Origin: Phenylobacterium sp.
GTDB taxonomy: Bacteria > Pseudomonadota > Alphaproteobacteria > Caulobacterales > Caulobacteraceae
DNA: 64,000 nucleotides
Assembly (NCBI RefSeq): GCF_037189685.1
Contig: NZ_JBBCIT010000003.1
Coordinates: 106,014 to 170,013, forward strand
Direction: 5' to 3'
The first letter of the stretch is position 1, and every line of letters starts with the position of its first letter. Below the pieces are notes generated by a model. The model was given only the letters and a program-made list of their open reading frames with translations, made no database searches and was not told the DNA's origin. The position numbers and the translations under genes are program-made. Positions 215 to 53,768 of the stretch are shown here, piece after piece.

Positions 215-2155
215 ATGCTCGCCGCCACCCGCCAGTTCGCGAAGTCCTGGCCCGCCCGGATCCTGCTGATCCTCCTCGCGCTCGGCCTCGTCACAGTGGG
301 CGCGAACCAGGGCGGCCTGCTGGCGCTGGACGGCGACCAGATCGTCAAGGCCGGCTCCCGGTCGGTCAACGCGTTCGAGTTCCGCCGCGAGTACGACAAC
401 TTCCGCCGCCGTCTCGAGGAGCAGTCCGGCCAGCCGGTGACCCCCGAGATCGCCCAGGAAAACAACCTCGACGCCAACCTGCTGAACGGCCTCGCGACCC
501 GGGAGGCGTTCGCCGAACTCCTCTCGCGCATGGGGGTAAAACCGTCCGACAAGCTGATCCTCGAGCAGATCCAGCAGATCCCCGCCTTCTTCGATCCCGT
601 CTCGGGACGGTTCGACCGCCAGACCTTCGAGGCCAGGCTCAGGGACAACGGGCTCACGCCGGAAGCCTTCGACGACGAACTGCGCGACCAGATGGCCGCC
701 CAGCACTTCATCGTGGCGATCCAGAACGGCCTGGCCGCGCCGCGCACCTACGGCGCCGTGGCGGCCGTCTTCGCGACCGAGTCGCGCGACCTGGCCTATG
801 TGACGCTGAATCCGAACAGCGTGCCGCGCCCGGCCGCGCCGACCGACGAACAGCTCAACGCCTTCATCAAGGAAAACGCCGAGCGGCTGACGATACCCGA
901 GATGCGCGTGCTGACCGTGGCGCCGTTCACCACGGCGGGCGCCCAGGCGGGCCTGGGCCCGATCGACGCCGAGGAACTGCAGAAGCGCTACGAATTCCGC
1001 AAGGATACGCTCTCGACCCCCGAAACGCGATCCATCGTCCAGGTGCCGGTCAAGGATCAGGCGAGCGCCCAGCAGGTCGCGGCCCGGCTGACCCGGGGCG
1101 AGGACCCCGCGGCGGTCGCGAAGTCGATCGGCGTCGAGGCCGTCCGCTTCGACCAGCGGCCCCTGACGGCGGTGTCCGACCGCAAGGTCGGCGAGGCCGC
1201 GTTCCGGATGGCCGACGGCCAGGTGGCGGCGGTGCAGGGCGACCTGGGCCTTTCGGTGGTCAAGGTCCTGTCGGTCACCCCGGGCCGGGAGGTTTCGCTG
1301 GAAGACGCCCGTCCCATGCTCGAAGCCGAGATCCGCAAGGACATGGTGGCCGAGAAGGTCCACACCCAGACCGAAGCCTACGAGGAAGCCCACCAGGGCG
1401 GCGCCAGCCTCGCCGACTCGGCCCGCAAGGCCGGCGTGAACGTCCTGGCGATCGGTCCGGTGACGGCCCAGGGCCAGGACGAGAACGGCCAGCCCATCGC
1501 CGGCCTTCCACCCAAGATCCTCGAGACGGCCTTCGGCCTGGGCGCCGGCAGCGAAAGCGACCTCACCGACCTCGGCGACGGCTCGTACTTCGCCGTGCGC
1601 GTCGAACGTGTCGTCCCGGCCCGCGTGCCGCCGCTGGACGACATCCGTGGCCCGGTCACCCAGTTCTGGATGCAGCGCGAGGTGGTCCGCGCCCTGGAGG
1701 CCAGGGCCAAGTCGCTCACCGATCGCATGGCCAAGGGCGAGACGCTGGAGGCGGTCGCGGCTTCGTCCGGACTGTCCGTGTCGCGGCTGCCCGGCCTGAC
1801 GCGCCAGAACGCCGGCCAGCACCAGCAGGCGCTGGGCGGCCAGGTGCTGTCGCAGGCGTTCTCCGCCAAGACCGGCGAGGCCTGGTCCGCAGGCGCGCCG
1901 ACGGGCCTCGTCGTGGGCCGGGTCGAAGCCGTCCGCGCCGACGGCGGCCCCACGACCGCCCGCCTGGCCGACGCCAGCCGCGGGGAACTGACCCAGGTGC
2001 TGTTCCGGGAGATGGGCGAGGCCGCCCAGGTCTATGCGCGCAACAAGCTGAAGGTCCGCATCAACCGCGACAAGGCCCGTACGGTCCTGGGCTTCCCGCC
2101 CCTGCCCAAGGGCGGCGACGCGGCCGCCGGGAAGAACGCGGAGAAGAAGAAGTGA
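215..2155 (+). CDS. PpiD-like periplasmic chaperone / peptidyl-prolyl isomerase
   Basis: ORF 116..2155. Preferred start is ATG 215, preceded by GGGAAGG. An N-terminal membrane anchor (ARILLILLALGLV) is followed by a long SurA-N/rotamase-like periplasmic region. The stop overlaps the trpE GTG. Confidence 0.8.
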   Translation: MLAATRQFAKSWPARILLILLALGLVTVGANQGGLLALDGDQIVKAGSRSVNAFEFRREYDNFRRRLEEQSGQPVTPEIAQENNLDANLLNGLATREAFAELLSRMGVKPSDKLILEQIQQIPAFFDPVSGRFDRQTFEARLRDNGLTPEAFDDELRDQMAAQHFIVAIQNGLAAPRTYGAVAAVFATESRDLAYVTLNPNSVPRPAAPTDEQLNAFIKENAERLTIPEMRVLTVAPFTTAGAQAGLGPIDAEELQKRYEFRKDTLSTPETRSIVQVPVKDQASAQQVAARLTRGEDPAAVAKSIGVEAVRFDQRPLTAVSDRKVGEAAFRMADGQVAAVQGDLGLSVVKVLSVTPGREVSLEDARPMLEAEIRKDMVAEKVHTQTEAYEEAHQGGASLADSARKAGVNVLAIGPVTAQGQDENGQPIAGLPPKILETAFGLGAGSESDLTDLGDGSYFAVRVERVVPARVPPLDDIRGPVTQFWMQREVVRALEARAKSLTDRMAKGETLEAVAASSGLSVSRLPGLTRQNAGQHQQALGGQVLSQAFSAKTGEAWSAGAPTGLVVGRVEAVRADGGPTTARLADASRGELTQVLFREMGEAAQVYARNKLKVRINRDKARTVLGFPPLPKGGDAAAGKNAEKKK

Positions 2156-3684
2156 CGCCCGAGCCGCCGTTCGACGCCTTTCGCTCGACTTACGACGGCG
2201 GCGCCCCCCAGGTCGTCTGGACACGCCTCATCGACGACCTGGAGACGCCGGTCTCCGCCTATCTGAAGATCGGCCACGGCCGGCCCTACGCCTTCCTCTT
2301 CGAGTCGGTGGAGGGCGGCGCGTTCCGCGCGCGCTATTCGATCATCACCCTGAACCCCGACCTCGTCTGGCGCTGCCACGGCGACCGGGCCGAGATCGCC
2401 ACGGGCGACGACATCGCCCAGGGCCGATTCACGCCCCAGCCCGGCGGCGCCCTGGACAGCCTGCGCGACGTGCTGGCCGCCTCGCGGATCGAACTGCCGC
2501 CCGGCTTGCCGCCGATGGCCGCCGGCGTGTTCGGCGCCCTGGGCTACGACACCATCCGGCTGGTCGAGACCCTGCCCGACGTCAATCCCGACCCCCTGGG
2601 CCTGCCGGACGGCGTGCTGACGCGGCCGTCCGTGATCGCCATCTTCGACGGCATCGCTCAGGAGATCCTGCTGGCGACGCCCGTGCGTCCCGGCGAGGGC
2701 TCCGCGCAGGACGCCTATGAGGCCGCCCGGGCGCGCCTCCAGGCCGTCACGGACGACTTCCGCAAGCCCGCGCCGCCGCTGCGCGGCGACGCCCGCCCCG
2801 AGCCCGACCGCTTCACCACGCCCGTGAGCCGAGAGGCCTATCGGGAGATCGTCGAGAAAGCGAAGGGCTACATCCGCGCCGGCGACATCTTCCAGGTGGT
2901 GCCCAGCCATCGCTTCCGCGCGCCCTTCGAGGACGATCCGTTCGCGCTCTACCGCTCGCTGCGCCGGGCCAACCCCTCGCCGTTCCTGTTCTACCTGAAC
3001 TTCGGCGACTTCCAGCTCGCGGGCTCGTCGCCCGAGATCCTGGTCCGCCTGCGCGACGGAAAGATCACGATCCGCCCGATCGCGGGCACCCGCCCGCGCG
3101 GCGCCACGCCCGAGGAGGACCGGCGCCTCGAGGAAGAACTGATCGCCGACCCCAAGGAGCGGGCCGAGCACCTGATGCTGTTGGACCTGGGCCGCAACGA
3201 CGTAGGCCGGGTGGCGATGCTCAAGCAGGCCGGCGCCAACGAGCCGCCAAAGGCGTCCCACGTCCCGCGCGTCCGCGTCACCGACAGCTTCTTCGTGGAA
3301 CGCTACGCCCGCGTCATGCACCTCGTGTCCAACGTCGAGGGCGACGCGCCCGACGGACTCGATCCGGTGGACGTGGTGATGGCCGCCCTGCCCGCCGGCA
3401 CGCTGTCGGGCGCGCCCAAGGTCCGGGCCATGGAGATCATCGACGAGCTGGAGATCGAGAAGCGCGGCATGGGCTACGCCGGCGCCGCCGGCTACTTCGG
3501 CTCGGACGGTTCGGTCGATACCTGCATCATCCTGCGCACGGCGCTGTTCAAGGACGGGATGATGTACGTCCAGGCCGGCGGCGGCGTGGTGGCCGACAGC
3601 GACCCCGACGCCGAATACGACGAGACCCTGCACAAGGCCCGCGCGCTTCGCGACGCCGCCGTGGAGAGTTGGCGGTTCGTGTAG
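2152..3684 (+). CDS. trpE: anthranilate synthase component I
   Basis: Last about 510 codons of frame 151..3684. GTG 2152 overlaps the upstream stop (GTGA). Chorismate-binding motifs are present: LFESVEGG, IAGTRPRG, LSGAPKVRAMEIIDELE, GGGVVADSDP. Confidence 0.92.
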   Translation: MTPEPPFDAFRSTYDGGAPQVVWTRLIDDLETPVSAYLKIGHGRPYAFLFESVEGGAFRARYSIITLNPDLVWRCHGDRAEIATGDDIAQGRFTPQPGGALDSLRDVLAASRIELPPGLPPMAAGVFGALGYDTIRLVETLPDVNPDPLGLPDGVLTRPSVIAIFDGIAQEILLATPVRPGEGSAQDAYEAARARLQAVTDDFRKPAPPLRGDARPEPDRFTTPVSREAYREIVEKAKGYIRAGDIFQVVPSHRFRAPFEDDPFALYRSLRRANPSPFLFYLNFGDFQLAGSSPEILVRLRDGKITIRPIAGTRPRGATPEEDRRLEEELIADPKERAEHLMLLDLGRNDVGRVAMLKQAGANEPPKASHVPRVRVTDSFFVERYARVMHLVSNVEGDAPDGLDPVDVVMAALPAGTLSGAPKVRAMEIIDELEIEKRGMGYAGAAGYFGSDGSVDTCIILRTALFKDGMMYVQAGGGVVADSDPDAEYDETLHKARALRDAAVESWRFV

Positions 3685-3695
3685 CCGAGGCCTTC

Positions 3696-3734
3696 GGAGC
3701 GGACGGCCCGGTTTCGTGGTCCGCCGACCGCTCC
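3696..3734. terminator. hairpin between convergent trpE and the P-loop gene
   Basis: ggagcggacgg (3696-3706) pairs with ccgaccgctcc (3724-3734): 11 bp with one mismatch and a 17-nt loop. No U-tract. Confidence 0.3.
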
Positions 3735-4306
3735 TAGGGATGCAAACGGGACATGAGCTCTCCCTCGATCCGCTCCGCCGTCTCGGCTGCGCCCAGACCG
3801 CTGGTGTTCAGGTCGAGAATCCAGTCGTGGCGGATCGGGAAAGGACCGAGGGAAGCCAGCGAACGCGCCTTTCCGGCGTCCGTGGTCTTGAACCTTTCGC
3901 GTCGTCCGGCGCTGGCGATCCGTTCCCGAAGCTGTTCTTCGTCACACGCGAGACGGACCACGAGCAGGCTTGCCCGCCTCCGCTCGGCCACCCAGAGAAG
4001 CTGACCCGCTATGACCCAGTCGATCGGATGTCCGCCCGGGTCCGAGACCGCATGGGTGAAGACATAGTTCCGCCCCGGCGGCCCGAAGCGCGCGACCGTC
4101 TCCAGCACTGCTGACAGGACGTCGTTGGTCCTGTCCCACACGCCCGCGGGAAGGGTCTTCCCGTCCGGCTCGACCACCTCGAAGATCGGGTTGCTCCAGA
4201 AATGATTGTCCAGGAGCTTGGCGGAGAGACGTTCCGCGACGAGCTTCCCCACCGTGTACTTGCCCACGCCGGGAGGGCCCACGAGGTAGACGATCACATT
4301 TTGCAT
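3734..4306 (-). CDS. P-loop NTPase / small-molecule kinase-like protein (AAA_33-like)
   Basis: ORF 3734..4360. The internal ATG 4306 gives MQNVIVYLVGPPGVGKYTVGK, with the Walker A motif at the N-terminus. Size and layout resemble shikimate/gluconate-kinase-type P-loop proteins. Confidence 0.7.
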   Translation of the reverse strand: MQNVIVYLVGPPGVGKYTVGKLVAERLSAKLLDNHFWSNPIFEVVEPDGKTLPAGVWDRTNDVLSAVLETVARFGPPGRNYVFTHAVSDPGGHPIDWVIAGQLLWVAERRRASLLVVRLACDEEQLRERIASAGRRERFKTTDAGKARSLASLGPFPIRHDWILDLNTSGLGAAETAERIEGELMSRLHP

Positions 4307-4459
4307 TGCGCCCTCGGCGTTCCCTCGCCGGAGACACCAGGGCGGCCGGCGGTTCGTCACGTTTCGAGCGTACGCGCTTGAGCAGCGCCCGCAACGAGCG
4401 GATGACCGCCTCGACAGATCACGAGCCCGTCCTGTCCCCGCCCCTCGGGCGCGTACAGC

Positions 4460-4663
4460 CTAATCCATCGCGCGCTGCGCCACCGGCTCCGTGGTCACCG
4501 GCGGCGCGAGCACCATAGTCGCCGCAAAGGCCACCGAGGTCGCCGCCAGGGCCGTGGCCGCCGCCAGGACCGGCCAGAGGGAATCGCGGCGCTGGGCCGG
4601 AGCCACGAGACTCCGCGCTCGGGCCACCGCATCCACATCCAGGGCAGAATCGCTCAGCGCCAT
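4460..4663 (-). CDS. hypothetical small membrane protein (67 aa)
   Basis: Tail of ORF 4460..5806, starting at ATG 4663: [13 protein letters not shown]...[25 protein letters not shown]... It has one predicted TM helix and GC-rich third codon positions. No recognisable family. Confidence 0.35.
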
Positions 4664-4714
4664 ATCCGCAGCATCCGACTTGGCGCTCGCGCCGGCAAAG
4701 CCTATGGAACGCCC

Positions 4715-5305
4715 ATGATCCTGGTGATCGATAACTACGACAGCTTCACCTACAACCTCGTCCACTTCCTGAACGAGCTGGGGGCGGAGACGCTTGTCCA
4801 TCGCAACGATGCGATCACCGTCGAGGAGGCGGTGGGCCTGCGGCCCGAGGCGGTGCTGCTGAGCCCCGGGCCGTGTACGCCGAACGAGGCCGGCATCTGC
4901 CTCGACCTCATCCGCGAAGCGCCGGAATCCCTGCCGATCCTGGGGGTCTGCCTGGGCCATCAGTCGATCGGCCAGGCGTTCGGCGGCACGGTCGTCCGCG
5001 CCCGCGCCCTCATGCATGGGAAGACCAGTCTCATCCATCACACCGACACAGGTGTGTTCCGCGGGTTGAAGAACCCTTTCACCGCGACCCGATACCATAG
5101 CCTTTCCGTGCAGGAAGCCGATCTGCCGCAGGCGCTCGAGGTCACCGCCCGCACCGAGGACGGCGAGATCATGGGCCTGCAACACCGGACCCGTCCGATC
5201 CACGGCGTGCAGTTCCATCCCGAATCGATCGCCACCGAGTGCGGCCACGAGCTGCTCGCCAATTTCCTCGACCGGGCTGGCGTGAAGCGCCTGGCCCAGG
5301 TCTGA
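4715..5305 (+). CDS. trpG: anthranilate synthase component II (glutamine amidotransferase)
   Basis: [17 protein letters not shown]-terminus, catalytic GVCLGHQ, and HGVQFHPES. Confidence 0.95.
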
Positions 5306-5324
5306 CCGTCCGGGCCCGCCCGCC

Positions 5325-6353
5325 ATGTCCGCCGCCTTCAAGCCCCTCCTGTCGCGCCTCGCCGACGGCGGCACGCTGTCCGAGGAGGACGCCGGGGAGT
5401 TCTTCGCGGCCTGCCTGCGCGGCGAGCCCACGCCGGCCCAGGTGGGCGCGGCGCTCACGGCCATGCGGATGCGGGGCGAAACCCTGGGCGAGATCACCGC
5501 CTGCGCCCGCGCCATGCGCCGGGCGGCGGCGCATATCGAACCGCCCTTCCCGACGATCGACGTCTGTGGCACGGGCGGCGACGGGCAGCACACGCTGAAC
5601 ATCTCCACCGCCGTGGGCTTCGTGGCGGCGGGCGGCGGGCTGAAGGTGGCCAAGCACGGCAACCGGGCGCTGTCGTCCAAGTCGGGCGCGGCGGACGTCC
5701 TGTCGGAACTGGGGGTCGCCATCGACGCGGGACCGGAACGCCAGCTCGAGGCGCTGGACGAGGCCGGCATCTGCTTCCTGTTCGCCCCGGCCCACCACGG
5801 CGCCATGCGCCACGTCTCGCCGATCCGCGCCGAGCTCGGCTACCGGACCATCTTCAACCTCCTGGGTCCGCTGACCAATCCGGCCGGCGCCCAGCGGCAG
5901 GTGGTGGGCGTGTTCGCCGAGCGCTGGGTGGCCCCGCTGGCCCAGGTGCTGGGCGCGCTGGGGTCGGAACGTGCCTGGGTGGTCCACGGTGGCGGCCTGG
6001 ACGAGATGACCACCACGGGCGAGACCAGCGTGGCCGAGTATCGCGAGGGCCAGGTGCGACTGTTCACCGTCACGCCCGAGGCCGTGGGCCTGAAGCGCGC
6101 GGCGCTGGCCGACCTCACCGGCGGCTCCCCGGCCGAGAATGCGCAGGCCCTGCGCCGGCTGCTGGACGGCGAGCCCGGCGCCTATCGCGACATCGTCCTC
6201 CTGAACGCCGCCGCCGCCTTCCTCGTCGGCGACAAGGTTGAGACCTTGCGGGAAGGCGTCGAATTCGCAGGCCGCGTCATCGACGATGGCCGCGCGAAGG
6301 CCGCCCTGGAAAAGCTGGTGGCCATCGCACCCCTGACGCAGGAGCCGGCATGA
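5325..6353 (+). CDS. trpD: anthranilate phosphoribosyltransferase
   Basis: [15 protein letters not shown] and [16 protein letters not shown] motifs; follows trpG. Confidence 0.95.
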
Positions 6354-7126
6354 GCGACGTCCTGGCCGGGATCGCCGCCTACAAGCGCCAGGAAGTCGCC
6401 GAGCGCCGCGCGGCCCGGCCCGTGGCGCCCACCGCCGGCGTTTCGCCGCCGCGGGGCTTCAAGGCGGCGCTGGAGCGGGCGCACGCCCCCGGCCGCCTGG
6501 CTCTGATCGCCGAGATCAAGAAGGCGTCCCCGTCGAAAGGCCTGATCCGCGCCGACTTCGACCCGCCCGCGCTGGCGCAGGCATATGAGGCCGGCGGCGC
6601 GGCCTGCCTGTCGATCCTCACCGACGGCCCCAGCTTCCAGGGCGCCGATGCGTTCCTCACCGCCGCGCGCGACGCCACCGCCCTGCCCTGCCTGCGCAAG
6701 GAGTTCCTGGTCGATCCCTGGCAGGTCGCCGAGAGCCGGGCCCTGGGCGCGGACGCCATCCTGGTGATCCTGGCGATGGTGGACGACGGCCTCGCCGCCG
6801 AACTGATGTCCGAGGCCGCGGCGCATGGCATGGACGCCCTGGTCGAGGTCCACGACGAGGCCGAAATGGCCCGCGCCGGGCGTCTGGGCGCGACCCTGGT
6901 GGGCGTGAACAACCGCGACCTGCGCAGCTTCGCAACCGACCTGGCCGTGACCGAGCGTCTGGCCGCCCTCGCGCCTGCGGACGCCCTCCTCGTGACCGAG
7001 AGCGGCATCTTCACGGCCGCAGACGCCGCCCGGCTGGAAGCGAGCGGCGCCCGCGCCATGCTGGTCGGCGAGAGTCTCATGCGCCAGGCCGACGTCGCCG
7101 CCGCGACTCGCGCCCTCCTGGGCTGA
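6350..7126 (+). CDS. trpC: indole-3-glycerol-phosphate synthase
   Basis: ATGA overlap with trp[16 protein letters not shown] and VGVNNRDL motifs. Confidence 0.95.
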
Positions 7127-7192
7127 GTCGGCGGCCGGCGCCCAAAAAGCCAAGCTTTTCAACGGCTGACAGTATCGCTTGACATTAACCCA

Positions 7193-7207
7193 GAACGCTT
7201 GGAGAAC
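7193..7207. promoter_or_regulatory. LexA operator (alphaproteobacterial SOS box GAAC-N7-GAAC) upstream of lexA
   Basis: gaac gcttgga gaac at 7193-7207, 40 bp upstream of the lexA ATG. TTGACA lies at 7179-7184 just upstream. A second, off-spacing GTTC-N6-GTTC lies at 7229-7242. Confidence 0.6.
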
Positions 7208-7246
7208 ATCCACAGACGTTTGCGCTTTGTTCTTCGAGGTTCACAG

Positions 7247-7936
7247 ATGCTCACCCGCAAACAACATGAGCTGCTCATGTTCATCCATGAGCGGATCAAA
7301 GAGACCGGGGTCTCGCCATCCTTCGACGAGATGAAGGAAGCGCTGGACCTCGCCTCGAAGTCCGGCATCCACCGTCTCATCACGGCGCTGGAAGAGCGCG
7401 GTTTCCTGCGCCGCCTGCCGCATCGGGCCCGTGCGCTCGAGGTGGTGAAGCTGCCGCAGCAGGCTACGGCGGCCGCCCCGCCCAAGGGCCGCGCGCCGTT
7501 CAAGCCACAGCTCGTCGAGGCCGGCGCGGCCATGCCCGCCGCCGCCAACGACAGCCGCGAGCTGCCCATCCTGGGCCGGATCGCGGCCGGTACGCCCATC
7601 GAGGCGATCCAGCAGGAACGCGACCGCATCCCCGTGCCCGAGACGATCCTGGGCGCCGGCGAGCATTTCGTGCTCGAGATCTCGGGCGACTCGATGATCA
7701 ACGCCGGCATCCTGGACGGCGACTTCGTGGTGATCCGCCGTACCGACAGCGCCGTCTCGGGCGACATCGTCGTCGCCCTGGTGGACGGCGAGGAAGCCAC
7801 CCTGAAGCGGTTGCGCAAGAAGGGCGCCTCCATCGCGCTGGAAGCCGCCAATCCGGCCTATGAGACCCGCATCTTCGGCCCCGACCGCGTGTCGGTGCAG
7901 GGCAAGCTGGTCGGCCTCATCCGCCGCTATCACTGA
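7247..7936 (+). CDS. lexA: LexA repressor
   Basis: ORF 7199..7936, with start taken at ATG 7247 ([21 protein letters not shown], winged helix). C-terminal S24 peptidase region ([13 protein letters not shown] ... KRL). Confidence 0.95.
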
Positions 7937-8225
7937 GCCCGTCGCCCGGCGCGCCGGGCCTGAAGACGAAGTCCACACGGAACACCCGCTCGCCACGTCC
8001 ATGGCGGGCGGTTTCCATGAGGGCGGCGAGGCTCTCGAAGCCACCCTCGCGCGCGGTCGCCTCGGTGACGTCGGAAAGGTCGATCTCCTGGAGCCGCGTC
8101 ACCTTGATGTGGCCGTCCGCCAGCGGGTAGCGGCCGCCCACGCGCACACGCGGCGTCAGCCAGAACCGGATGCTGCTGGTGATCTCGCCCGAGCGCACGC
8201 GGGACCGGAGGTTTCGGGCGAACAT
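7917..8225 (-). CDS. small ASCH-domain-like protein (102 aa)
   Basis: Tail of ORF 7917..10022 from ATG 8225: [33 protein letters not shown]... The ATG shares one nt with the comEC TGA (TGATG). The 3' end overlaps the lexA 3' end by 20 bp, convergently. Confidence 0.6.
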
Positions 8226-10384
8226 CACCGCGGATCGTATCCCCAGGTCCAGGGCCGCCGGCCCCGATACGCCTGCGCCCAGGCGGCGCGCCAGCCCTGG
8301 CCCGTCCGCCAGAGCTCCACCGAGCCGCCGGCCAGGAAGTCGCGCTCGGTCAGCACAAGGCGTGCGCCGCAGCTCTCGGGCCGGACGTCGTTGCGCAGGA
8401 CCACGAGATCGGCGCCCGCGCACAGCTCCTCCAGCCGCCCCGCCTTCAGCGGCCGGCGCAGGTTCCAGGCCGCCGCCACCCGGACCGGGGCGTCCGCGCC
8501 CGGCGCACAGCTCCACTGGTCGCAGGTGAATCGCGCGTCCCGTTCCGCGTCGCTGACCAGCGGGGTCAGGCCGCGACGCCGGGCCCAGAGTTCGGCGCCG
8601 AAGAGCTTCACGTCCGGCCGCATCAGCACCGCCTCGCGGCCATCGCGCACCGCCACCGCGGCGCCGTCGGCGGCCACCCAGACGTCGGGCGGCGACGGGC
8701 GCGGCGCCCAGAGGATGGCTGTCGCGGCCAGCAGGCCCGTCCACCGGAGCGGACCCGCCCACAGGCAGACGAACAGCAGCCCCAGGAAGCTCACGGGCAG
8801 CACCCAGCCTGGGGCGCTCGGGATCACCGCCTGCGCCAGCGGCGCCGAGGCGGCGATCTCGGCGACCCGGTTCATCAGCGCGATGGACCAGCCCGCGACC
8901 TCGAGCGGCGCCTGTCCGAGCCCGAAGGGCGTCAGCGTCGCCCCCAGCGCCAGGCCGGGCATCATCAGGAAGGACGAAATCGGCGCCACCGCCAGGTTGG
9001 CGAACAGCCCCCAGGTGGCCACCCGGTTGAAATGCTGGATCGCGAACGGCCCGGTCGCCAGGCCGGCCACGAAGCTCACCGCCAGGCTGGCCGCGGTCCA
9101 GGTCGCCGCGGTCTGCGTCCAGCGGATCGGCCAGGGCACGTCGATCTCGCGCACAGGCCGCGGCCAGATCTCGGCCAGGGCCACCAGGGCGGCGGTGGCC
9201 GCGAACGACATCTGGAAGCCCGGACCCGTTATGGCCTCGGGTTGCAGGAGCAGGACCGCCATCGCCGCCAGCGCGAGGGCGTGAAGGCTGATCGCCTGCC
9301 GGTCGGCCAAGACGGCGAGGAACGCGACCGCGGCCGTGATGGCGGCGCGCTCCGCAGGCGGCGGCGCGCCCGAAAGGACCAGATAGCCGCCCACGGCGGC
9401 CAGCCCGACACAGGCGGCCACCTTCTTGCCGGGCGCCCTCAGCGCCAGCCACGGCCACGCGGCGACCAGGAGCCGGACCGCGGCGAAGACGAAGCCGCCG
9501 ACGATGGCCATGTGCAACCCGCTGATCGAGACGATGTGGGCCAGGCCGGAATCGCGCAGGTTCTCGACCTGCTCGTGTGGGATGAAGGCTTCGTGCCCCG
9601 TCGTCATCGCCGCCGCCAGGCCGCCCGTCTCCGCTCCCAGGGCCGCGACGATCTTCTCGGTAAGACTCCAGCGGACCGCGTTGATCCGCATGGTGAGGCC
9701 CAGCCGCCAGGGCGCCGGCGCCTCGGCTTCGACGGCGACCGGCGGGCGCAGGGCCAACCCTACGGCGCCGACGCTCCTGAAGTAGGCGTCGCGCGCGAAG
9801 TCGTAGGCGCCCGGGCTCGCCGGCGGCGGTGGCGGGTTGAGGATCGCGAACAGGCGCACCGCCTCGCCCGGACGCGGCAGCGGGGTTCCCGGGCGCAGGG
9901 TCACCCGCATCCGGATGGGAGTCGTCCGCGCGGGCCAGTCGCCGATCCGGACCGGCGCCAGCAGCAGCCGCGGGCCGCCCTGCCCCGGCGAGGCGATGTC
10001 GACCACCCAGGCCTCGACCCACTGCGGTTGGCCGCCGGCCCGGGCCACCGGCGCCTTAACGGCCTCGGCCCGGAGCTTGGCTGTCGAGAAGCCGCCCACG
10101 AAACAGGCCCCCAGCACCAGGGCGATCGTGACCAGCCGCGCCGGGCTCCATCGGGTCGCCACGAGCAGTCCCAGGACGACCGGCAGCAGCGCCCACGCCA
10201 CCCAGGCCTGGGGCTCGCGCAGAAGGGTGAAGTAGAGCGCGCACCCTCCGCCGAACGCGACGGGCGTCCAGAGCGTCCAGCGGTCGGCCTGGGCCCAGGC
10301 CTGCGCCCCCAGCCAGGCGCGCGCCGACGCCAGGGCGGGTTCCCGCCCGGCGCTATCCGCCGCCGCCGTTCCAAGCGCGTCCAA
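8225..10384 (-). CDS. comEC: ComEC/Rec2 family DNA internalisation channel protein
   Basis: C-terminal about 720 codons of ORF 8225..11608. Polytopic core with SGLAHIVSISGLHMAIVGG. The part of the ORF above about 10560 is antisense to gltX. There is no in-frame ATG near the 5' end, so TTG 10384 is proposed and the start is uncertain. Confidence 0.8.
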   Translation of the reverse strand: MDALGTAAADSAGREPALASARAWLGAQAWAQADRWTLWTPVAFGGGCALYFTLLREPQAWVAWALLPVVLGLLVATRWSPARLVTIALVLGACFVGGFSTAKLRAEAVKAPVARAGGQPQWVEAWVVDIASPGQGGPRLLLAPVRIGDWPARTTPIRMRVTLRPGTPLPRPGEAVRLFAILNPPPPPASPGAYDFARDAYFRSVGAVGLALRPPVAVEAEAPAPWRLGLTMRINAVRWSLTEKIVAALGAETGGLAAAMTTGHEAFIPHEQVENLRDSGLAHIVSISGLHMAIVGGFVFAAVRLLVAAWPWLALRAPGKKVAACVGLAAVGGYLVLSGAPPPAERAAITAAVAFLAVLADRQAISLHALALAAMAVLLLQPEAITGPGFQMSFAATAALVALAEIWPRPVREIDVPWPIRWTQTAATWTAASLAVSFVAGLATGPFAIQHFNRVATWGLFANLAVAPISSFLMMPGLALGATLTPFGLGQAPLEVAGWSIALMNRVAEIAASAPLAQAVIPSAPGWVLPVSFLGLLFVCLWAGPLRWTGLLAATAILWAPRPSPPDVWVAADGAAVAVRDGREAVLMRPDVKLFGAELWARRRGLTPLVSDAERDARFTCDQWSCAPGADAPVRVAAAWNLRRPLKAGRLEELCAGADLVVLRNDVRPESCGARLVLTERDFLAGGSVELWRTGQGWRAAWAQAYRGRRPWTWGYDPR

Positions 10385-28973: not shown

Positions 28974-32435
<3,462 letters not shown>

Positions 32436-32440
32436 GGCGG

Positions 32441-32530
32441 TCAGCCCACCAGGCCGGCCACCGAACAGACCATCCAGACAAAGCTGGCCACCGACGCAAA
32501 CGCCAGCGATTCCCGGGCCAAGCGAACCAT
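32441..32530 (-). CDS. sidA: putative SOS-induced small hydrophobic membrane protein (29 aa), SidA-like
   Basis: [29 protein letters not shown]. Minus-strand AGGAGG (32545-32540) lies 9 nt before ATG 32530. A GAAC-N7-GAAC box lies about 45 bp upstream. The stop is 5 nt before the dnaE ATG. The symbol rests on architecture and synteny, not sequence identity. Confidence 0.5.
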
Positions 32531-32575
32531 CTTCCGCATCCTCCTGTGGGGCGCCTGTGGAGAACCTGTAGGCGC

Positions 32576-32607
32576 GTTCCGTTTTCGTTCCTTTTCACCT
32601 TTTGTTC
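32576..32607. promoter_or_regulatory. SOS box (GTTC-N7-GTTC) plus a third GTTC, in the dnaE / orphan-gene divergent region
   Basis: gttc cgttttc gttc at 32576-32590, and a further gttc at 32604-32607. The tract is unusually T-rich for this genome. Confidence 0.55.
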
Positions 32608-32636
32608 CATAGGTCAAGCCGCTAGGCTGGCGCCCG

Positions 32637-33890
32637 TTGCTGGAACGTGGGGGCGGGAACTTGAGGGCGACACGACACAGACGGACGGCCGGGCCGTCGC
32701 CGCTGCTCGCCGTCCTGGCGGCTGGCGGTTTCGCGCTGGCCGCCCCCATGCTGGGCGCCTCTGCGCTGGCCACCCCCGCGCCGGACACCTCCCTGACGCC
32801 TGGGGCCGCACCTTCGCCTTGCGTCGGGGCCTGGAGCGGCGAAGGCCGGCCCCTGCGGTTTCGCGACGGGATGGCCGAGGCCGAGCGGCGGGCGCTGAGC
32901 GCGGCCGTCTTCCTGGCCCTGGACGATCCGGCCGGCGCCGCCGACTGGCCGGCCGGCGCGATCGAGGACGCGCCGCCCTGCGAACTGGCGCGCTTCCAGG
33001 CCGACGGCGTGACCTGGACGATCTCGGGCGGTGTCGCCCCTGCCCCGCCGCGCGTCATCCGCGGGCCTGGGACCTCCGACTACTTCTTCGTCGCGGAAGC
33101 GCCCGCGCTGGACGACGCCGGCCGGTGGGCGGCGGCGATGACGCCGCTCGTCCCGCGCACGAAGCCGCCCGTCTATCTCCTCGTCGGCGCGACGGGCGAA
33201 CGGCGCTTCGTCTTCGCGGCCTACGACTCGGCGCCCGGAACCAAGCAACTGGCCGACGACGTGGTGAACGTCGTGGAGGGCGACGCCGCGCCGATCGCGC
33301 TTTTCGACCGTCCCGGCGCGGCGGTCACCGTGGCCGCCACCAGCCGCAGCGGCGTGCAGGCCGACCTCTACCGTCCGGCGCTGCTCGATCGCCGCCGGAC
33401 GGCCACGCTCTACGGGCCGGACGGCCGCTACTTCGTTCCGATGGCCGGCGACGCGATACGGCTCCACGGTTCCGGCCTCGAGTGTCCGGCCCGCCATGGC
33501 GCGTTCGAGCGCGCCCGCCTGATCGTGATGGACACGCGTCCCGACCACCTGGACCTGGCCTGCGTGTTCGAGGCCGGGGAGAGCTACATCACCGTCTTCA
33601 GCCAGCGCCTCGCCGACCCCAGGACCGACCGGGCCTACATCGCCGAACAGATCGCGGGTTCGAAGGCCTCGACCGGCGTTTCAGGCCGCCGGACGACGAC
33701 GGAACGCCTTCGCTCGGCCGACGCCGGCCATCGGTGGGAGGACAGTTCCGGCCAGCAGCAGGCGCTGTGGTTCCACCGCCGGGGCGACGACCTGATCGAG
33801 GCGCGCGCGACCTTCACGCCCGAGGCCGAGGCGGACGTCGTCAGCCTCGTCGAAAGCCTGTTCGGCCAGCCGTGGCGGCGCGGAGACTGA
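32637..33890 (+). CDS. hypothetical exported protein (417 aa), no recognisable domain
   Basis: ORF 32637..33890. The N-terminus has RHRR followed by the hydrophobic LLAVLAAGGFALAAPMLGASALA, which looks like a signal peptide, possibly Tat-type. Good GC3 codon bias. Confidence 0.6.
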   Translation: MLERGGGNLRATRHRRTAGPSPLLAVLAAGGFALAAPMLGASALATPAPDTSLTPGAAPSPCVGAWSGEGRPLRFRDGMAEAERRALSAAVFLALDDPAGAADWPAGAIEDAPPCELARFQADGVTWTISGGVAPAPPRVIRGPGTSDYFFVAEAPALDDAGRWAAAMTPLVPRTKPPVYLLVGATGERRFVFAAYDSAPGTKQLADDVVNVVEGDAAPIALFDRPGAAVTVAATSRSGVQADLYRPALLDRRRTATLYGPDGRYFVPMAGDAIRLHGSGLECPARHGAFERARLIVMDTRPDHLDLACVFEAGESYITVFSQRLADPRTDRAYIAEQIAGSKASTGVSGRRTTTERLRSADAGHRWEDSSGQQQALWFHRRGDDLIEARATFTPEAEADVVSLVESLFGQPWRRGD

Positions 33891-42089: not shown

Positions 42090-42104
42090 GAACATTGTAA
42101 GAAC
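42090..42104. promoter_or_regulatory. SOS-box consensus GAAC-N7-GAAC at the 5' end of the GIY-YIG gene
   Basis: gaac attgtaa gaac at 42090-42104. It runs into the 10-bp palindrome gaacatgttc (42101-42110), which is centred on ATG 42105. Confidence 0.45.
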
Positions 42105-52692: not shown

Positions 52693-53768
52693 GCCACCGG
52701 CCCCCGGACGTAGACCAGCCAGCCGGCCACGAGGCACACCGCCGCCAGAGAGGTCGGCAGGAAGACCTTCCAGCCCAGCCGCATCAGTTGGTCGTAGCGG
52801 TAGCGGGGCACGATCGCCTTCACCATGGCGAACATGAAGAAGAAGAAGATCACCTTCCCGAAGAACCACAGGAAGTAGAAGAAGCTGGCCGCCGTCGGCG
52901 CCCACGAGTCGGTGAACCCGGTCGGGAACGGCGCGTGCCACCCCCCGAAGAACAGGATGGTGATCATCGCGCACATCAGCACGATGTTCGCGTACTCGCC
53001 GATCATGAACAGCAGGTACGGCGTGGAGCTGTATTCCACCTGGTAGCCGGCCACCAGTTCCGACTCCGCTTCCGGCAGGTCGAACGGCGGGCGGTTCGTC
53101 TCCGCCAGCGCCGAGATGAAGAAGATCACCGTCATCGGGACCATCACCACCGCGCCCAGCAGGCCGCCCAGGCCGCCGCCCCCGCCCAGGACGTTCCAGT
53201 TCCAGAAGCCCCCGGCCTGCCGGTCCACGATCGCGGTCAGGTTCATCGACCCCGCCAGCAGGATCACCGTGATGATGACGAAGCCGATCGAGACCTCGTA
53301 GCTGACCATCTGCGCCGCCGAGCGGAGCGACCCCAGGAACGGATACTTCGAGTTCGAGGCCCAGCCGCCCATGATGATGCCGTAGACGCCCAGCGAACTG
53401 ACGGCGAACAGGTAGAGGATGCCGACGTTCAGGTCGGCGATCACCCAGCCCGGCGCCAGCGGCACCACGGCCCAGGCGCCGAACGCCAGGATGAAGGTGA
53501 TCAGCGGGGCCAGCAGGAAGACGCTCTTGTCCGCCCCGGCCGGGACCACGACCTCCTTCAGCAGGAACTTCAGGAAGTCGGCGAACGACTGGAGCAGGCC
53601 GAAGGGGCCCACAACGTTCGGCCCCTTGCGCATCTGCACGCCGGCCCAGATCTTCCGGTCGGCCAGCAGCAGGAACGCGAGCGACAGCAGGATCCAGATG
53701 GTGACGGCCAGGATCTGGCCGACGGTGATCAGGGTCCAGCCTGCGGGAGTGGTCCAGAAATCCGTCAC
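52689..53768 (-). CDS. nuoH: NADH-quinone oxidoreductase subunit H
   Basis: 359 aa polytopic protein ([21 protein letters not shown]). Confidence 0.95.

Follow-up and report, generated by a model that had tools for sequence, protein, structure and literature searches.

In Caulobacter crescentus, cleavage of LexA leads to the production of SidA (CC_1927 / ccna_02004), an inner-membrane protein of 29 residues. SidA contacts FtsW and FtsN, and it delays constriction by holding the FtsW/FtsI/FtsN subcomplex inactive (PMC4211646). In C. crescentus NA1000, sidA (ccna_02004) and dnaE (ccna_02003) are adjacent, and the sidA transcription unit of 3557 nt consists of sidA and dnaE (PMC12700426 supplementary tables). 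Both genes are contained in the SOS genes of Table S5 of PMC12700426. After 40 min of mitomycin C treatment, the log2 fold changes are 3.42 for sidA and 1.18 for dnaE, and dnaE shows a log2 fold change of 1.45 in a lexA sidA double deletion, in which sidA is deleted and not measurable (PMC12700426). The LexA box of Caulobacter is GTTC-N7-GTTC (PMC9578287 Table 1; PMC12700426), and the C. crescentus sidA promoter contains two such boxes, GTTCACAAGATGTTC and TTTCTTGTTTTGTTC (PMC12700426 supplement). An earlier sequence-only reading of the DNA described here had characterized SidA of C. crescentus as a 29-aa inner-membrane peptide under LexA control, encoded next to dnaE. The description of the peptide agrees with PMC4211646, and the adjacency is that of ccna_02004 and ccna_02003 in one unit of 3557 nt (PMC12700426).

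A second inhibitor from C. crescentus, DidA, is likewise a small transmembrane inhibitor of the FtsW/I/N subcomplex (PMC4211646). In contrast to SidA, it is induced by DriD and not by LexA, binds FtsN and belongs to a different family; no LexA box is expected. According to PMC13396833 and PMC9578287, YneA of Bacillus subtilis, SosA of Staphylococcus aureus, DivS of Corynebacterium and ChiZ of Mycobacterium are LexA-repressed small membrane division inhibitors as well, which block the late divisome or septal wall synthesis and not FtsZ. These proteins are unrelated to SidA in sequence, are larger and show no linkage to dnaE; YneA and SosA additionally carry extracellular domains. Their operator types differ from that of SidA, the Firmicutes type being CGAAC-N4-GTTCG. 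SulA of Escherichia coli is likewise a LexA-controlled, damage-induced division inhibitor; contrary to SidA, it is cytoplasmic and soluble, has a length of about 170 aa and binds to FtsZ, and it shows no sequence or structural relation to SidA. The operator of SulA is the gammaproteobacterial TACTG(TA)5CAGTA (PMC9578287).

The window, meaning the whole 64-kb stretch of DNA that was analysed, comes from a host of another genus than C. crescentus, a Phenylobacterium-like member of the Caulobacteraceae. Its locus shares with the C. crescentus system the length of 29 residues, the single hydrophobic segment, two boxes of the GTTC-N7-GTTC type, dnaE directly downstream and the host family. It differs in an extra leader hairpin of ∼24 nt found in the clade of the window and in the position of dnaE, which starts 5 nt after the sidA stop. 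The locus is interpreted here as the sidA-dnaE operon of Phenylobacterium-like Caulobacteraceae, with a LexA-controlled division inhibitor upstream of dnaE, a reading to which a probability of about 0.93 is assigned.

The sidA Reading Frame and Its Product

The minus strand at the locus reads ggcTTGACCtatgGAACaaaaggtGAAAagGAACgaaaacgGAACgcgcctacaggttctccacaggcgccccacAGGAGGatgcggaagATG...TGAccgccATG. On this strand, the Shine-Dalgarno sequence, the spacer, the ATG, the 29-codon ORF, the TGA and the dnaE ATG are all found where the sequence-only reading had placed them (Table 1). The encoded peptide matches the NCBIfam equivalog div_inhib_SidA (NF033228.1) with 68.1 bits (E = 4.6e-19) at a cut-off of 35 bits, and its residues 1 to 29 cover model positions 1 to 29, the full length of the model. 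A search of Pfam for the 29-aa peptide found no family. The N terminus is basic (MVRLARES, with two Arg residues) and is followed by one hydrophobic segment of 21 residues (residues 9 to 29) with a mean Kyte-Doolittle hydropathy of 1.99, which is predicted to span the membrane. The curated NCBIfam model together with the shared synteny provides the tie to the characterized SidA of C. crescentus. Judged by its sequence, the 29-codon frame is a genuine sidA and fits regularly into a family that is already known, curated and annotated.

The proposal of a SidA-like inhibitor is thereby supported, with the word "candidate" overstating its novelty. The description of the ORF as unannotated holds for the ORF track only; an exact look-up finds the identical 29-aa peptide already in the NCBI, ENA and Logan protein sets. 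The 90%-identity cluster of the peptide contains 19 members, 12 of which carry NCBI/UniRef names, and most of the named members are called "cell division inhibitor SidA" and come from Phenylobacterium species. In the mechanical ORF list, sidA is merged into a 205-codon ORF (32441-33058) and hidden within it because the frame stays open upstream by chance in a genome of 70% G+C.

Table 1. Coordinates of the sidA-dnaE locus and of related features in the window
Feature	Position	Strand	Details
lexA with its own promoter	7179..7936	+	TTGACA -35 at 7179-7184; ORF 7199-7936; ATG 7247
GAAC-N7-GAAC box of lexA	7193-7207	+	In the lexA promoter
dnaE (DNA polymerase III alpha subunit)	28974..32435	-	1153 aa; NF004226, 1448 bits
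sidA CDS	32441..32530	-	29 codons + TGA; NF033228 match and comparative coding pattern
sidA landmarks		-	ATG 32530-32528; TGA 32443-32441
Shine-Dalgarno sequence AGGAGG	32540..32545	-	9-nt spacer to the sidA ATG
sidA 5' leader hairpin	32551..32575	-	GCGCCT / AGGCGC stem; invariant TCCAC in the loop
LexA box 2, perfect, GAACGAAAACGGAAC	32576..32590	-	GAAC-N7-GAAC; operator type published for Caulobacter LexA
LexA box 1, imperfect, GAACAAAAGGTGAAA	32593..32607	-	GAAC-N7-GAAA; inside the promoter spacer
-35 element TTGACC	32612..32617	-	TTGAC in one aligned column block
Gene divergent from sidA	32637-33890	+	About 410-417 aa; signal-peptide-like N terminus RHRRTAGPSPLLAVLAAGGFALAAP
GAAC-N7-GAAC box	42090-42104	+	Within the palindrome CATGGAACATTGTAAGAACATGTTCCATG; abuts ATG 42105
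GIY-YIG nuclease gene	ATG 42105, to 42458	+	117 aa; PF01541, 59 bits
GAAC-N7-GAAC match	53395-53409	+	Inside a coding region; G+C-rich spacer

Conservation of sidA among Caulobacteraceae

Related loci were gathered by means of the N-terminal 350 residues of DnaE alone, which leaves the set unbiased towards sidA. Of the 80 genome loci obtained, 52 belong to the Caulobacteraceae, mostly Phenylobacterium with one Brevundimonas and a Caulobacterales MAG. With 97% DnaE identity, L001 (Phenylobacterium sp. SCN 70-31) is the closest of the 80 loci. A SidA homologue is located immediately 5' of dnaE in 52/52 Caulobacteraceae loci, and none is found before dnaE in the Rhodobacterales and other outgroup loci among the 80. 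The case for SidA had been made to depend on conservation of the peptide frame in related genomes, and this frame is kept in every Caulobacteraceae locus.

The window and its 52 relatives comprise 53 sequences, of which 51 differ at the DNA level and which encode 41 different peptides, and the ORF has a length of exactly 29 codons in all of them. In the sidA alignment, the column entropy at codon positions 1, 2 and 3 is 0.50, 0.33 and 0.91 bits, respectively. Single-site codon differences in the sidA frame are distributed as 8373 synonymous to 3471 non-synonymous, compared to 1984 to 10065 in shifted frame 1 and 1410 to 10380 in shifted frame 2. These substitutions show the pattern of a coding sequence, with purifying selection on the peptide. 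Residues R3, R6, E7, L9, S13, F17, V18, W19, M20, C22 and A25 vary hardly or not at all among the peptides. The open in-frame stretch 5' of the sidA ATG varies between 0 and 232 codons among the relatives (mostly 12 to 30), indicating that the conserved gene begins at ATG 32530 rather than farther upstream, where the 205-codon ORF starts.

Promoter and LexA Boxes of sidA

The alignment of the upstream regions reveals a conserved block of the form cTTGACga - N4-5 - GAACAAAAgnnGAAT - AA - GAACnnnnnnnGAAC; no conservation is seen in this alignment beyond the -35 element. TTGAC occurs within 130 nt 5' of sidA in 50 of the 53 sequences, and the GGA core of the Shine-Dalgarno sequence is kept at an equal distance from the ATG. 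A generic sigma-70 scan called no sidA promoter, and the -10 element is poor in the window. The -10 element is probably AAAAGG at about 32595-32590, which is aligned with AATAAG of the relatives. As both boxes are located downstream of the -35 element and upstream of the likely transcription start, RNA polymerase would be occluded by bound LexA.

Copies of GAAC are found on the minus strand at 32607-32604, 32590-32587 and 32579-32576. The sequence-only reading had described them as GAAC-N13-GAAC-N7-GAAC; the positions are right, but the arrangement is really GAAC-N7-GAAA, AG, GAAC-N7-GAAC, corresponding to two tandem LexA boxes. Box 1 is imperfect and reads GAAC-N7-GAAA in the window, whereas most relatives have GAAC-N7-GAAT, and 40 of the 53 sequences contain GAACAAAA-N3-GAAT/A 2 nt before box 2. 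Box 2 is perfect in 48 of the 52 related loci; the other four, as read in the alignment, show one mismatch, with a GTAC or CAAC half-site. With this degree of conservation and its match to the GTTC-N7-GTTC operator of Caulobacter, the SOS box claimed in front of the ORF is confirmed as a sequence feature. The reverse complement of the C. crescentus box TTTCTTGTTTTGTTC is GAACAAAACAAGAAA, nearly identical to the box 1 consensus determined here. The spacing differs between the two systems: the box-to-CDS distances are 49 and 15 nt in C. crescentus, whereas in the window box 1 begins 77 nt and box 2 begins 60 nt ahead of the ATG.

lexA and Other LexA-Type Sites in the Window

GAAC-N7-GAAC occurs four times in the 64-kb window compared to 1.32 expected occurrences, a count that is weak by itself. 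Three of the four sites precede plausible SOS genes, namely, lexA, sidA and the GIY-YIG nuclease gene. The lexA ORF matches the TIGR00498 equivalog with 184.3 bits (cut-off of 110.95), and the gene of the cognate repressor is therefore present in the same window, 25 kb from sidA. The LexA protein of the window presumably targets the boxes of sidA. From the placement of its box, the GIY-YIG nuclease gene is probably another SOS-regulated gene, and the fourth site (53395-53409) is most likely a chance match.

Directly 3' of their LexA boxes, lexA and sidA share the heptamer TCCACAG, and ATCCACAG after the lexA box is the same motif as that found after the box in the sidA leaders.

Leader Hairpin and Rare Codons

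About 31 relatives and the window form a long-leader clade of Phenylobacterium carrying ∼24 extra nt in the sidA leader, and the hairpin of this stretch is situated at the 5' end of the leader. All 31 of the 31 distinct long leaders, folded singly, form a hairpin around TCCACA, with a mean z of -2.2 against shuffled sequences; the hairpin of the window folds at -11.7 kcal/mol. The short-leader relatives lack this hairpin in the alignment. Stems vary by species and include GCGCC/GGCGC, GCGGCTG/CAGCCGC and CCCCC/GGGGG as well as GGCGGT/ACCGCC, CGACTG/CAGTCG and TGCGGT/ACCGCA, a set of sequence differences that looks like compensatory change. RNAalifold applied to the MAFFT alignment of the leaders did not yield a consensus structure, as the stems are shifted relative to one another in it, and Rfam showed no match within 32000-33200.

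The loop of the window hairpin contains UUCUCC, which is complementary to the Shine-Dalgarno sequence GGAGGA. A terminator-like site on the plus strand, made up of 32551-32575 and a T-rich tail and reported once by the generic sigma-70 scan, is read as the leader hairpin beside the T-rich LexA boxes; the terminator reading was rejected because no plus-strand gene ends there.

The codon usage of sidA differs from that of dnaE across the 53 loci, sidA retaining codons that are otherwise rare in these genomes. Phe is encoded by TTT in 93% of the sidA Phe codons, compared to 4.8% in dnaE, and Glu is encoded by GAA in 94% of cases in sidA, compared to 20% in dnaE. Val2 is GTT in 47 of 51 sequences, and many other third positions of sidA are saturated. 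This pattern in the alignment points to selection on the rare sidA codons at the nucleotide or decoding level.

The sidA-dnaE Junction

The 5 nt between the sidA stop and the dnaE ATG at 32435 are ccgcc. Synonymous wobble (ATG CGN ATG GGN GAG) and codon indels that preserve the frame in the relatives back this dnaE start. The sidA-dnaE gap is small in nearly all 53 sequences, ranging from a 4-nt overlap to about 30 nt, and reaches 64 nt in L048. In the clade of the window, the gap amounts to 4 to 7 nt, dnaE starts with ATG, and no conserved Shine-Dalgarno sequence for dnaE is found within the 3' end of sidA. In other Phenylobacterium loci, dnaE has its own GGAGG and starts with GTG or TTG 16 to 28 nt after the sidA stop, and the Brevundimonas-like loci L049 and L050 feature an ATGA overlap of the two genes. 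These clade-dependent starts suggest varying degrees of translational coupling.

With a tiny gap, no room for a terminator and a divergent gene upstream, sidA transcripts must enter dnaE. The divergent orientation of the upstream gene in the window also means that nothing can read into sidA-dnaE from upstream. As dnaE is essential, some LexA-independent or leaky transcription must exist. A search of the relatives' alignment for a conserved internal dnaE promoter inside sidA gave no convincing one, and basal transcription of dnaE could arise from leaky initiation at the sidA promoter or from a second start site. The sequence-only reading had raised the question of SOS-dependent read-through into dnaE, which is answered for C. 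crescentus only, where induction is strong for sidA and weak for dnaE (PMC12700426).

The constant tightness of the junction, the ATGA overlap in L049 and L050 and the lack of a conserved dnaE Shine-Dalgarno sequence in the clade of the window would also fit a short ORF that is mainly a leader peptide (uORF) of dnaE, which delivers ribosomes to dnaE and whose peptide is itself functionless; the conserved rare codons could then tune the ribosome flow. This explanation is very unlikely given the strong conservation of the amino acid sequence, with its excess of synonymous differences, and the match to a model built for a peptide that was shown to be functional in its own right (NF033228; PMC4211646). 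The many relatives with a separate GGAGG and a GTG/TTG start 16 to 28 nt downstream argue against it as well. Translational coupling could exist in addition to the function of SidA.

A SidA-encoding operon that is also shaped by an undescribed post-transcriptional layer, comprising the hairpin, the fixed rare codons and the tight junction, is conceivable but doubtful. If this were true, the ribosomes translating the division inhibitor may set the amount of the replicative polymerase. The leader hairpin, the conserved rare codons and the always small sidA-dnaE gap may be new.

A small, hydrophobic and potentially toxic peptide could also represent another membrane toxin, type I toxin-like or DidA-like and not controlled by LexA, and the conserved leader hairpin could be the target of a post-transcriptional control of such a toxin. 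Contrary to this idea, the peptide matches an equivalog specific to SidA, a LexA-type operator precedes the gene, lexA itself is located in the window, and neither an antisense RNA nor another RNA family was detected with Rfam within 32000-33200. DidA, moreover, is described as a distinct inhibitor with FtsN as its target and without dependence on SOS (PMC4211646). Another toxin of this kind is thus highly implausible.

Proposed Mechanism and Significance

The mechanism proposed for the LexA-controlled sidA-dnaE operon is analogous to that of C. crescentus. Here, the two tandem LexA boxes extend over the spacer and the -10 region of the promoter as well as over the start region, and LexA would hold the sidA promoter nearly shut. 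Upon DNA damage, cleavage of LexA would lead to strong transcription of sidA. By homology with the C. crescentus protein, SidA is expected to insert into the inner membrane and to bind FtsW and FtsN of the late divisome, keeping the FtsW/FtsI/FtsN complex inactive. Constriction would be delayed until repair is complete. The sidA transcripts running into dnaE would raise its expression modestly during the SOS response, in line with the values from C. crescentus, from which the extent of the co-induction is taken.

The gene sidA, its 29-aa product, the control by LexA and the adjacency to dnaE are already known. The discovery value of the locus is little, as sidA, LexA control, the position of dnaE and its weak induction are published for C. 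crescentus, and the NCBI annotation pipeline already names the SidA peptide family in Phenylobacterium. The locus demonstrates that a real gene of 29 codons is recognizable from raw sequence and that an ORF-length cut-off conceals known small genes. The 53 sidA-dnaE junctions, with their two-box operator, clade-specific leader hairpin and conserved rare codons, are of modest value in themselves and could guide the study of how an essential polymerase gene tolerates a position downstream of an SOS promoter under strong repression. Only the hairpin, the codon bias and the tight junction may merit further study.

Neighboring and Overlapping Reading Frames

A chance frame in DNA of 70% G+C, or the tail of the 205-codon ORF, next to a fortuitous GAAC repeat, could be argued from the single 205-aa ORF of the mechanical list, from the opposite strand being open too in 47 of 51 homologues and from the unremarkable number of GAAC-N7-GAAC sites taken alone, but it is already refuted by the constant length of 29 codons in 53/53 sequences, a codon-position pattern specific to the sidA frame, in-frame stops 0 to 30 codons 5' of the ATG in most relatives, the match to the curated model NF033228 and a G+C-by-codon-position profile that is wrong upstream of sidA, where the plus-strand gene has the coding profile. 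Based on this profile and on a lack of conservation, neither the 205-aa ORF nor the long plus-strand ORFs across the region were accepted as genes.

In the DNA 5' of the sidA ATG, the G+C content by codon position follows the pattern of a gene encoded on the opposite strand. This divergent gene (32637-33890) has a G+C content of 0.74, 0.59 and 0.89 at codon positions 1, 2 and 3, respectively, and searches of Pfam and NCBIfam with its product gave no match. Its start lies only 20 to 45 nt from the -35 element of sidA, and its promoter must therefore overlap the sidA control region.
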